From Eledone cirrhosa (taxonomy: Eukaryota): a stretch of 64,000 nt of DNA. The notes under the pieces were generated by a model. The model worked only from the letters and a program-made list of their open reading frames with translations. It was not told the origin of the DNA and ran no database searches. Position numbers and translations under genes: made by a program. Shown in pieces: positions 45,445 to 55,722 of the stretch; within the stretch, counting starts at the first letter, position 1, and each line of letters opens with the position of its first letter. The DNA lies in NCBI GenBank assembly GCA_964016885.1, contig OZ024745.1, forward strand, positions 22,134,001-22,198,000, given 5' to 3'.

Positions 45445-48213
45445 TATATATATATAATAAATGGGTACAAAATATACGCAAGTATACATACATAAATGCG
45501 GCTGAGGGACAACAGAAAATATCTGGAGTTAAAAACACAAGTGACATGTGATGTCTGGTAGTGAAAGAAAAGGGGAAAGTAAAATAAATGTAAATAATGT
45601 ATAATTGTTAAGATATAAAGTTAATGAATCAAATAGCGGGGGGGGGGGGGGGTCACTACTGGATGTAAAGTAAAAATAAAGATAAGTAAAGCTGAATGAG
45701 AAGTCTATAAAAAAGGTAAGTTAAGGAAAGTGAAGAACAAGAGTTTATGGAGGATAAGTGTCTGAAAGTGAGTTAAGTTTATATGAGCTGGAAAGCAAAT
45801 ATGATTTCATGAGTGGGCAACTGATGAACATTTCTGTTTTTGCATTTAGGCAGGTTTTTGGTGATTTAAGGTTCTGTAAAAACCAATATTTTTCACTTAT
45901 GCAGAGTGCGCATCTTCTTGTTCCTCTTGCGTATTCTTTAGAATGGTTCAAAATTGACCAATCTAATTTATATTGGATACCTTGGTCCTTCAAATCCCAA
46001 ATTCTGCTAGCCAGAGCTGTTGTAAATCTTTTTTCAGGATGTCAGAAAGATGCGACATGTAAGTAATAATGCATTTTGAATTTGTCTTGTGTCATACCCA
46101 CATATCGTTCGCTGGTGGCTGGTAGGTTGTTGCTTTGTTGCTGGTGGTTGTCACTTTGGCCTCATATACAATGGCTTTGGTGTTGCATTTACTTTGTAAT
46201 GAGCATTCACTTTTGACTCTACAGGAGCAATTTTGATATTCTCTGGGTGTTTTCTTATTAAGGATAGATTTAATAGAGGGACCGCAGGAGTAGTTGATTT
46301 TGACACAATTTCTATTGAAGATCTTATAGTATCTATGTGTTCTAGGGAAATGTTTATCTAAGAGCTCTGGGAATGTTTTGCCTACATTAGTTTTAACTGC
46401 TAAAGAGTAGGGGGTGTGAATCAGATTATTTTTCTTTTCCTATTATTATGTTTAAAGGAGTTAGTATTGTTGGACATGTACTTAATCGGTTCACTAAATC
46501 CACTATTTTGAAGGGCTTTATTATAGTAGGTGGATGCCTTATTGAAAATAGCTTCTGAGGAAGAGAGGGTGGAGATCCTACGGCTAATATTAGGGATGAG
46601 ATTTTTAAATAATATAGGAGGATGGCAAGAGCCTTTATTTATGTATTTTAAATTTTCATTAGGTTTATGGTACGGTTTATAAGAAGCAGTAGACAGATCT
46701 AGGTTTACATCTAGAAAATTAACATTAGAAAGGTTTCTGGCAATTGTAATTTTAAGATTAAAACTAGCGAAGGTTTTTATTAAGTCTTTCCTGAATCTGT
46801 CTATGTTATGGCCTATCGTAGTATGGGAAAGTATTAGACCATCGTCACGATAAAGCCCAATGGTATGGTTATGGAATTTCTCTTTAAGTGTGTAAAGGAG
46901 GAATAGGCCGACTAAATCGCACACGTCAGCACTGTCAAAAGAACCCATTGAGACATCGAAGGGGTTCTCTGGGTTAGATTTTATTTTACCCAAGTATCAT
47001 TATTAGTAAACAGTAAAGTATTTCTAGCATGCAAAATGACATTCTCTTCAATATCAGAAATATTAATAAACTTTTTAGCAAAATTTAATGCTTTTGTTAA
47101 AAGAAGGAGAGTAATAGACGGGTAGAAGTCTACAATGTCAAATTGGGTGAATCTAGAACTATTTTTATCTTTAATATTTTTAAACCAATGTACTACAGAA
47201 GAGCTATTTATCCATTGGAGTAATTCTGACTTACTTCTAATATGTTTGTTTATGTTATTTAATATTTTTTTGCTAGCAAGGCCGATTTCAGTCTTAGCAG
47301 GGTTGATTAATCTACAACTGGGACGATTATTAAAATCGATCTTTAAGAGTGATATAGGCATTACGTTTTGCAAATGTTTCTGTTCTATTGTCTATTTTAA
47401 AAAAAACTAGCTAATTCTTTGGCGTCCTTATTAATAGTATTATAGGGATTTATGTTAGCTCTTTGGTATTTAGAGGTGATGCTATCTGTATAGAGTTGGT
47501 CATGTAAGTTATTATTAACTTCGTATTATTAACTTCAGAGAAAATGAACTTATTTTTAGAAGATTTGAATTTTGAAATATCGTTAGAGGGTTTAGATTGA
47601 AAAGAGTTAAAGTACTTACGGAATTTGATTTGGTTAATTAAATTAACTAAGTCTAGTTCAAAAGCGGTCATGTCTTTTACCCTTTGTGGGTATTTATGAG
47701 ACTTGATGTCAAAGTATTCTGTAGAGTCCGTGATAAAGTGTCCGTCGAAAATCAAAGCTTTCCATCTCATCCTTTTTACAACTTTTTCTACTTTGTCGAT
47801 CAACATTTTAGTGTAGGAAGTGTTAGAAGGTGTTGGTATATTCTTGATGGAGTAATCCAAAAAATAACAATCCATGTTAGGTATTGGTTAAAATTCCTTT
47901 TAACTGAAGAGTGCTCGACTTTAAGGGCCTGGAAGGTGCCAGAATCATATAAATGTAGAATATGCTACAATCATTCCGTTGGGAGCTGTATAAGTATTGA
48001 AGTTTTCGTTGAAAATTGAAAAGGTCAGAGGAATGAAGAGTGCTATATGTAAGTTCCAGAACAGAGCTAAATATTTAATGTATAATAAACAATACAATAT
48101 AATTACCTCATTACCAAAGGTTTCCCGAATAATACGAATACAAGAAACGTCCGCATTCGTCCGTCAGACAAGGCAATTTAAAACATAGTGAAATATTTCA
48201 AAAATCATCTCAA
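45445..48213 (-). mobile_element. Near full-length Penelope-like (Naiad-like) element with 5' HHR repeat; 3' UTR cut at (TA)n
   Basis: 5' HHR 48101-48177 homologous to the 3' HHR of the sister element (52606-52683); ORF pieces below. Confidence 0.92.
45745..47875 (-). pseudogene. Frameshifted PLE RT-GIY-YIG polyprotein gene
   Basis: YSIKNIPTPS, KRMRWKA, CRLINPAK, FDIVDFYPSI, FDVSMGS, LYRDDGL, CALCISEK spread over several frames. Confidence 0.92.
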
Positions 48214-48282
48214 TATATATATACATATATATATATATATATATATATATATAGATATAGATATATATATATATATATATAT

Positions 48283-55500: not shown

Positions 55501-55722
55501 TACGTCGCACGTTTAGCAAGTTTTTCTGTCCTATTATCTATTTTTAAAGAAACAGCTAATTCTTTAGCTTCCTTATTTATATTATGGTACGTATTTATAT
55601 TAGCTATTTGGTATTTAGAGGTGATATTATCTATTAATAGTTGGTAGTGTAAATTATTATTAACTTCATATAGGTTTTTAGTTTTATCTGAGAAGATGAA
55701 CTTATTATTAGAAGATTTGAAA
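52582..55722 (-). mobile_element. Penelope-like (Naiad-like) element, 5'-truncated, complete 3' UTR and 3' HHR (52606-52683)
   Basis: rc attgcctcgt-CTGACGA-..-GAAA-cctctgg-TA-atgaggtaat; (TA)n on both sides. Confidence 0.95.
53889..55721 (-). CDS. PLE reverse transcriptase plus GIY-YIG endonuclease; frame open for about 610 codons, lacking only the N-terminus
   Basis: Manual translation upstream of the listed ORF is open: SDKTKNLY, LKDHKP, CRLINPAK, FDIVDFYPSI, then MGSYD, YRDD, CSCR..CPL, IVY..YVG, CTLCINEK. Confidence 0.92.
   Translation of the reverse strand, partial: FKSSNNKFIFSDKTKNLYEVNNNLHYQLLIDNITSKYQIANINTYHNINKEAKELAVSLKIDNRTEKLAKRATYITLKDHKPDFINRPSCRLINPAKTDIGLASKKILNKLNTHIRSKSKLLQWINSSSVVHWFNNIKNKISSRFTQFDIVDFYPSITQTLLVKALNFARGFTNISDIEEDVILHARNTLLFNDNDTWVKISNPENPFDVSMGSYDSAKVCDLIGLFLLHTLKEKIPNHIFGLYRDDGLILSHTTIGHNLDRLRKDLIKTFASFNLKITIDTNLSNVDFLDINLDLPTASYKPYHKPNENLKYINKGSCHPPIVFKNLIPNISRRISTLSSSEAIFNKASPYYNKALQNSGFSEPIKYIPNYTNSIKHKNMKRKIIWFTPPYSLAVKTNVGKTFLELLDKHFPRTHRYYKIFNRNCVKISYSCGPPIKSYILNRTSPRENQTCSCRIKSECPLQGKCNTKAIVYVANVTTISNNHPVTSERYVGMTQDRFKTRYYSHVASFRHPEKRFTTALASRIWDLKYQGIQYKLDWSILNQSKKYARGTRKCTLCINEKFGILQNLKPPKTCLNTKTEIFTSCPHMKSHLLSSSYKLNTLSDTYPP

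Follow-up and report, generated by a model that had tools for sequence, protein, structure and literature searches.

Introduction

Among the Penelope-like elements (PLEs) that join a reverse transcriptase (RT) to a GIY-YIG endonuclease, two clades are distinguished in the part of Craig et al. (2021; PMC8557442) available to us. Naiads are described there as having an endonuclease at the N-terminus, a CxC domain that precedes the RT, a DKA motif, a CCHH motif, usually an IFD (reduced in some) and no canonical hammerhead. The Hydra clade is described as having a C-terminal endonuclease, RWK and DKT motifs, a CxCX5C linker, CxxC and CxH motifs that flank a conserved E and N in the endonuclease, canonical hammerheads and insertion at (TA)n, no CCHH and no IFD, and a general tendency to be shorter than 3 kb. 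Here, we analyze two element copies, A and B, in a 64,000-nucleotide stretch of Eledone cirrhosa DNA (GCA_964016885.1, contig OZ024745.1, positions 22,134,001 to 22,198,000, forward strand; hereafter, the window). We conclude that A and B are very probably two dead or incomplete insertions of a Hydra-clade lineage, belonging to two subfamilies that diverged while active.

Targeting of (TA)n through the Cys linker is put forward as a hypothesis in the same partly available paper. The one purified PLE found in our literature search is the Poseidon element PAc of Anolis, whose protein, according to the accessible part of Frangieh et al. (2024; PMC11167929), binds its own RNA, makes nicks in AT-rich DNA and begins reverse transcription at an internal position of that RNA; in vitro the ribozyme need not cleave, and PAc initiates without homology. 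PLEs have also been proposed as mobilizers of animal retrozymes in what could be consulted of Cervera and de la Pena (2020; PMC7229834) and of Li et al. (2026; bioRxiv 10.64898/2026.07.22.740005), the latter on the evidence of homology to the pseudo-long terminal repeat (pLTR). In cephalopods, 31 recently active Penelope-like families are reported from Octopus vulgaris, their clades not being named in the excerpt at hand (PMC13282606).

Results

Layout of copies A and B

The span from 45445 to 55722 consists of three minus-strand retroelement pieces, copies A and B and fragment C, lying between (TA)n arrays (Table 1). A preliminary description, made from the DNA letters, had presented this span as a PLE-type RT plus GIY-YIG retroelement with a hammerhead pLTR inserting in (TA)n, which is correct. 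The coordinates also hold, but the description did not mention fragment C, a third, unrelated Hydra-type piece (37% amino-acid identity to B).

As described there, copy A provides a 5' hammerhead (48178-48101), a leader and an ATG at 47875. This ATG, on the minus strand, opens 102 codons (MDCYFLDYSIKNIP...KRMRWKA) that continue into the beginning of the B frame, and it agrees with the starts of homologues. The 120 proteins gave 98 hits; in the 77 alignments that begin before query residue 15, the offset has a median of 0 aa. Copy B likewise provides the frame of about 610 codons (55721-53892), the 3' untranslated region (UTR) and the homologous 3' hammerhead (52684-52605); it has neither a leader nor the first ~102 codons, and its first Met is codon 212. 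A and B together cover 102 + 610 = 712 codons, and full-length homologues are ~700-730 aa. The composite unit measures 3647 nt, an estimate drawn from two incomplete copies. Neither copy holds a leader, a complete open reading frame (ORF) and a 3' end, as A is broken and B is 5'-truncated. Thus, neither is the autonomous element that had been claimed, and we judge from its sequence that neither A nor B can now mobilize itself.

A (TA)n array is found 1-3 nt away from every one of the four A and B ends, compared to 2.2% of non-array positions that lie within 5 nt of one; only the two ends of B are fixed by homology independently of the arrays. The pLTR terminus of A is the same base as the 3' terminus of B, and this segment passes into the A leader without a TA array between them, which is the pLTR arrangement of PLEs.

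The preliminary description had called for a search for intact copies, and one intact relative was recovered. This locus, L002 (CBDHEM010000081.1, 2273-5161), reads ribozyme-ORF-ribozyme-(TA)n; its direct repeat spans 300 nt at 99% identity, its hammerheads are identical, and it has an ORF of 728 aa and (TA)7. It is one of 19 loci with Hydra-type elements (L001-L019) that came from bacterial genome bins and are probably host DNA contaminating those bins; 13 of the 19 have at least one hammerhead hit.

Table 1. Positions in the window of copies A and B, their parts and related pieces
Feature	Positions	Strand	Remarks
Copy A	48212→45455	-	5' hammerhead, leader, ATG 47875
A 5' pLTR, 135 nt	48078..48212	-	homologue of last ~140 nt of B; same end point as B (…TTATACAT)
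A type I hammerhead	48101..48178	-	cleavage after 48112; core variant CUGACGG
A 5' leader, 202 nt	47876..48077	-
A ORF, Hydra-clade RT–GIY-YIG, broken	45745..47875	-
A partial 3' UTR, 290 nt	45455..45744	-	no hammerhead; ends at (TA)n common to adjacent monomer array
Copy B	55721→52583	-	610-codon open frame, 1.3-kb 3' UTR, hammerhead
B ORF, 610 open codons, 5'-truncated	53889..55721	-	frame open 55721-53892
B protein map			RT ~aa 1-360; Cys linker 453-467; GIY-YIG ~472-589
B 3' UTR, 1306 nt	52583..53888	-	internal microsatellites; end is 33 nt past ribozyme cleavage site
B type I hammerhead	52605..52684	-	CUGACGA / GAAA / GUA; cleavage after 52616; 38 nt between core halves
(TA)32 target array at B 3' end	52519..52582
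(TA)n array at A 5' end	48213..48289		also borders fragment C 3' end
(TA)n array at B 5' truncation point	55724..55746
Fragment C, other Hydra-type family	48290..50794	-	thumb and endonuclease frame 50678-49704; own hammerhead, cleavage 48332; inverted 3'-end copy at 50716-50794
Diverged relative of B 3' UTR	221..1430	+	67-78% in BLAST pieces; collinear as far as a hammerhead core whose stems differ

The encoded protein and its place in the Hydra clade

In a search with the B protein, 7999 candidates were scored and 1377 of them reached E<=0.001; the 120 listed homologues are 42-60% identical, mostly ~700 aa long, and none is informatively named. The AlphaFold model of B has a mean pLDDT of 90, and telomerase RTs come first among its whole-model Foldseek matches (6zdq, E 6e-9). 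When the C-terminal 153 aa were folded on their own, the first match was the GIY-YIG domain of I-TevI (Z 9.0, rmsd 2.3, 89 aligned), with T4 EndoII and UvrC after it. From these two predicted matches, we conclude that the domain order of B is RT and then a C-terminal GIY-YIG endonuclease. Among the 120 homologues examined, the endonuclease motif lies C-terminal of YRDD in all 86 in which the three motifs were found. In the ESM Atlas, the nearest clusters are unnamed or HTH_animal, and lower-ranked clusters carry RVT_1 or GIY-YIG on a minority of members, which we treat as a lead only.

The motifs of this protein are those described for the Hydra clade. RWK is present as KRMRWKA in A (and in 76 of 79 full-length homologues, those of at least 690 aa), and DKT as SDKT at aa 11-14 of B, a region that is damaged in A; DK[TS] occurs in 68 of the 79 and the DKA pattern in 2 of the 120 homologues. 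The linker cysteines C453, C455 and C461 (and C467) of B are invariant in 116 rows, and a CxCX5C linker is found in 78 of the 79. In the endonuclease of B we observed C556/C559, E562, N578 and C587/H589 (CxxC in 79/79 and CxH in 75/79 full-length homologues), and no Cys between Y474 and Y492, so CCHH is absent. Spacing between RT motifs 3(A) and 4(B), counted by eye, equals that in Hydra-1_Obim, which leaves no IFD in B, and neither copy has a CxC domain of Naiad type between endonuclease and RT. B also contains a full three-stem canonical hammerhead with predicted cleavage.

In our reading of the published alignment (Fig. S7, PMC8557442, partly available), B and Hydra-1_Obim share DSAxxCDLIG, SCHPPIVFKNLI and CSCRIxxECP, and 42 of 66 residues from motif 3(A) to 4(B) are identical by eye. 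The shared stretches are lineage-specific and point to a cephalopod as the host. This alignment suggests that Hydra-1_Obim is the closest named family, and on sequence we classify A and B as a separate new family within the described clade. The preliminary description had chosen Naiad from the motifs YSIKNIP, KRMRWKA, FDVSMGS and YRDDGL. In the supplement of PMC8557442, as far as it was accessible, RMRWK falls in Hydra rows at 3 of 3 places and KNIP at 4 of 6, and RLINP (first 9 of 12 places) and YRDDG (first 9 of 13) fall in Hydra rows throughout; these counts cover the first 400 characters of the protein rows and leave Naiad RT cores outside. Naiad_Obim and Naiad_Ovul start with the GIY-YIG domain and bear no likeness to the N-terminus of A. 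For annotation the distinction matters, as the two clades differ in domain order and ribozyme content.

Divergence of A and B

The ORFs of A and B are 86.6% identical (1569/1811). Over 596 comparable codons, dS is 0.49, dN 0.078 and dN/dS 0.16, and the differences fall 51/44/143 by codon position, with 143 of 238 at third positions. Given this third-position excess and the low dN/dS, we conclude from the sequences that purifying selection acted on A and B as they diverged, each as an active subfamily of its own. A has since accumulated lesions: relative to B its ORF has 8 indels, 6 of them frameshifting, and 3 stop codons in the B frame (one beside an indel cluster), and a conserved endonuclease Arg reads His and the His of CxH reads Leu. 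Among the 95 residues that differ between the copies, 17 are clear departures from the family in A (including the endonuclease Arg), 11 are clear departures in B and 67 are unclear.

As A and B belong to separate subfamilies, a sequence joined from them is a chimera that carries lesions of each, and the pair shows the layout of the unit only. The element had been called reconstructable from two sister copies. The copies are indeed homologous and collinear and span one unit length (712 codons), but a dS of 0.49 between two subfamilies makes sisterhood an overstatement, and what can be reconstructed is a chimera of the two.

Hammerhead ribozymes

We scanned the 64-kb window with a pattern for type I hammerheads and obtained 25 hits, compared to none in each of 30 shuffled controls. 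The ribozymes of A and B are homologous (137 of 175 columns identical) and have an 11-bp stem I with 36-38 nt between core halves. Standard pairs fill 41 of 42 pair cells of the shared fold, with one two-sided and two one-sided consistent changes, and slid controls gave 24-60%; the pairing shuffle control was 240/500, and two sequences do not amount to statistical covariation. For B, the minimum-energy fold is the hammerhead fold. For A, the ribozyme-competent fold lies 7 kcal/mol above a minimum-energy misfold, and its core G (CUGACGG) is found in A alone among the 25 window hits and in 0 of 25 hits in the related loci, under a pattern that allowed G. This change, A9G, presumably impairs cleavage, a point for which our literature search gave nothing usable. 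We consider the A ribozyme to be probably decayed.

The same hammerhead had been placed at both the 5' and the 3' end of the element. The two ribozymes are homologous as claimed, but they belong to different copies: the type I pattern scan found none at the 3' end of A, B has no 5' ribozyme, and a ribozyme at both ends is a feature of the virtual composite only.

Rfam gave no matches at its gathering threshold; at E<=5 over 44400-56200 it gave no hammerhead match on the A and B ribozymes, only microsatellite-driven miRNA-type noise and weak HH9 matches on the monomers described below. After dropping a weak hit at 56598, 20 of 24 hammerheads have a TA array within 170 nt downstream, compared to 29% of random positions, as expected for the 5'-truncated 3' ends of several PLE families.

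Separately, a hammerhead-like core of another type, CUGAUGA...GAAAC, is found in a short repeat at 55809-55948, directly beyond the 5' TA flank of B, and at 58630-58770; the stricter hammerhead scan did not detect it. The hammerheads at 1228-1430 and 33197-33602 have ~100 nt between core halves and a 9-10-bp stem I.

Observations that weigh against a Hydra-clade origin for A and B

Several of our results count against this assignment. The local copy of Pfam, run on 8 window frames including B and on 30 of the 120 homologues, matched neither RT nor GIY-YIG for this family, and searching PDB sequences with a profile yielded one chance match and nothing significant. The two ribozymes score modestly against shuffles (z -1.4 and -1.65). 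The composite of 3647 nt exceeds both the "generally <3 kb" of Hydra elements and all 27 listed Hydra consensus sequences. B differs from the homologue family at 10 of 117 near-invariant columns and is not a pristine template; several of these differences are common to Hydra-1_Obim, and the Lys in RT motif B' (codon 219) seems peculiar to B. Finally, Hydra membership is argued here from motifs, predicted folds and our reading of a published alignment. A tree of the C-terminal half, built from 4 fragments of the window plus homologues 1-60 of the 120 (63 rows kept), groups B with P0001 (100/99), apart from fragments C, D and F; its relatives are unnamed, and without a named outgroup it cannot bear on clade.

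Relation to non-coding hammerhead monomers and other explanations

Beside copy A, an array at 44502-45454 has a repeating unit of 453 nt that contains a single type I hammerhead, whose stem III is palindromic; it is arranged as a partial tandem plus an adjacent inverted copy and ends at (TA)n; a related copy lies at 15405-15788. This monomer resembles a non-LTR retrozyme or may be a non-autonomous PLE, and any circles formed from it are candidates read from the DNA. The A/B element had been proposed as the driver that mobilizes such non-coding circles. On this reading, the A/B lineage would act in trans on monomers such as the 453-nt unit by recognizing structure and not sequence. The monomers do end at (TA)n in tandem and inverted arrangements like those of PLEs, one array adjoins copy A, and PLEs are the proposed mobilizers of animal retrozymes in the accessible parts of PMC7229834 and bioRxiv 2026.07.22.740005. 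However, when the A 5' end and B 3' end were compared to six other hammerhead repeat ends, none of 12 comparisons stood above shuffles (18-193 of 200 shuffles scored as high). Grouped by eye, the A/B ribozyme family makes up 2 of the 25 window hits and the C-like family 9. The window also contains three further coding families of Hydra type (5772-6452, 40993-43359 and 49704-50678), and most of its short hammerhead repeats read as 5'-truncated 3' ends of those families. Thus, the proposed driver role lacks sequence support, and we regard it as unlikely. Similarly doubtful, and a shade more so, is the wider idea that a Hydra lineage with a long 3' UTR selects its templates through structure immediately downstream of whichever type I hammerhead they carry and would thereby mobilize sequence-unrelated, retrozyme-like monomers. 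If true, this would give the first defined PLE–retrozyme pair together with a (TA)n-specific GIY-YIG/RT.

A and B could instead be decayed copies of one master element that their join restores. Their collinearity, 86.6% ORF identity, homologous ribozyme ends and complementary coverage totaling 712 codons fit this. But neutral decay would give a ratio near 1, far from the dN/dS of 0.16 found at a dS of 0.49 with third-position bias, and the unbroken frame of B indicates that B itself is little decayed; we find a single master very improbable.

We give still less credence to the idea that the ribozyme upstream of A arose as an independent short insertion and is not a pLTR. Short fragments with ribozymes at (TA)n are indeed frequent in the window (25 hits), but this is the sole other copy of the B ribozyme family in it, it ends at the B 3'-end base and continues into the A leader with no TA array, and L002 shows the same arrangement. 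A Naiad-like element, for which a shared (TA)n preference, occurrence in octopods and a length of 3.4-4.4 kb that fits the composite could be cited (PMC8557442, accessible part), is refuted by the C-terminal endonuclease. DKT in place of DKA, the lack of CCHH and IFD, the canonical hammerhead, octopus Naiads that begin with GIY-YIG unlike the N-terminus of A, and the fall of the cited motifs in Hydra rows also speak against it, and we consider it extremely unlikely.

A working model for the two insertions

Taking A and B as insertions of two Hydra-clade subfamilies, we propose that the intact parent would have measured ~3.65 kb, with a ~200-nt leader, one ORF of ~712 codons encoding a telomerase-like RT, a Cys4 linker and, C-terminally, a GIY-YIG domain, a long 3' UTR, and a type I hammerhead followed by 33 nt past its cleavage site. 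Transcription would pass through tandem or pLTR-flanked copies, a step established for PLEs and suggested here by the A pLTR and by L002. The GIY-YIG domain would then nick (TA)n, as the flanks and the clade-wide preference imply. At the nick, the RT would prime and start inside the RNA, ~33 nt downstream of the ribozyme cleavage site. As B ends 33 nt past this site, its template would have spanned the ribozyme, either uncleaved or re-ligated; the position of the 3' end is observed, and the mechanism is modeled on Poseidon PAc. Copying would mostly stop early and leave 5'-truncated copies such as B, and copying beyond one unit would repeat the 3' end and produce the 5' pLTR of A. Later, A would have decayed and most of its 3' UTR would have been lost at the TA junction. 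We also considered priming by micro-homology to (TA)n: the RNA beyond the end point reads TAAATA in A and TTAAAG in L002. This reading is weak, PAc initiates without homology, and we rejected it.

The long 3' UTR appears to be native to the lineage, because a diverged, collinear relative of it lies at 221-1430, in an alignment that is inflated by low complexity. Between the core halves of the ribozyme at its end (1238-1359) are 104 nt, compared to 36-38 nt in A and B, which suggests ribozyme replacement or rapid stem expansion.

Other elements in the window

The region 40234-44039 is a head-to-head inverted pair (99% over 2.5 kb; frames 40993-42195 minus and 42157-43359 plus) of a 5'-truncated Hydra-type family that has a ~70-aa Asn/Pro-rich insertion before the Cys linker and hammerheads at 40078 and 44391. 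No ribozyme repeats of the window outnumber the C-like 3' ends, which often form palindromic pairs (hammerheads at 2446, 10953, 11125, 17971, 25471, 30733, 32559, 32813 and 48332); where (TA)n is nearer, it lies ~50 nt beyond the cleavage site. A fourth Hydra-type coding fragment at 5772-6452 (minus) comprises the thumb end and endonuclease, is 39% identical to B and has an inverted repeat at its 5' junction (6394-6849 vs 4608-5107). Two more non-coding hammerhead repeat families, at 20521-21506 and 24256-25130, have 14-nt stem II regions and are tandem or palindromic; the latter has a short stretch in common with the 453-nt monomer.

Outside the hammerhead repeats, positions 37192-38121 (plus) encode a 309-aa non-LTR retrotransposon RT fragment that matches Pfam RVT_1 and DUF6451, both below the gathering cut-off, and that we take to be RTE-like. 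A 78-nt near-perfect palindrome lies beside a (TA)n array at 50929-51006, and ~1 kb of GGT/GAT-rich tandem repeat with a 60-nt period and several open frames occupies 12744-13825.

Comparison with known systems

Our literature search, which left subscription papers mostly outside its coverage, found no biochemical study of a Hydra-clade protein. For the questions of how Hydra enzymes pick (TA)n and whether PLEs mobilize retrozymes, the A/B locus is no better a test system than the published consensus sequences or the intact L002, and the A+B chimera would be a worse reagent.

In the accessible parts of PMC7229834 and Li et al. (2026), non-LTR retrozymes have type I hammerheads, tandem units and a proposed dependence on PLEs; they bear on the 453-nt monomer and not on A and B, which, unlike retrozymes, code for protein and have no detectable sequence in common with the monomers. 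Naiads, as far as PMC8557442 could be consulted, resemble A and B in their PLE-type RT with GIY-YIG, (TA)n preference and similar overall length, but differ in the position of the endonuclease, which is N-terminal and carries CCHH, and in having a CxC domain, DKA and usually an IFD and no canonical hammerhead.

The source of our working model, PAc (Frangieh et al. 2024; PMC11167929, available part), is like A and B in its C-terminal GIY-YIG, hammerhead pLTR and AT-rich targets, and like B in a DNA 3' end that lies downstream of the ribozyme cleavage site. PAc belongs to another clade, however, and its ORF begins within the ribozyme and its reverse transcription starts inside the ORF, whereas in A a 200-nt leader lies between ribozyme and ORF, and the target of A and B is (TA)n.

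The closest correspondence is with the Hydra clade, exemplified by Hydra-1_Obim of Octopus bimaculoides (2507 bp, 709 aa; PMC8557442, available part). Like A and B, these elements have a single ORF with the RT before a C-terminal GIY-YIG domain, RWK, DKT, CxCX5C, and CxxC and CxH around the catalytic E and N, lack CCHH and IFD, carry a canonical type I hammerhead near the 3' end and insert at (TA)n. Unlike them, A and B have a 1.3-kb 3' UTR with microsatellites and a composite length of ~3.65 kb, compared to 1.1-3.0 kb for the 27 listed consensus sequences (2.1-2.7 kb for complete ones), and, by eye, their stem I and core-half spacing are longer than in the listed Hydra ribozymes. A has a pLTR, whereas Hydra-1_Obim is noted in that source as being without one. 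We conclude that the long, microsatellite-laden 3' UTR is the sole unusual trait of A and B, a modest variation within the clade, and that the two copies are an ordinary addition to a described group.

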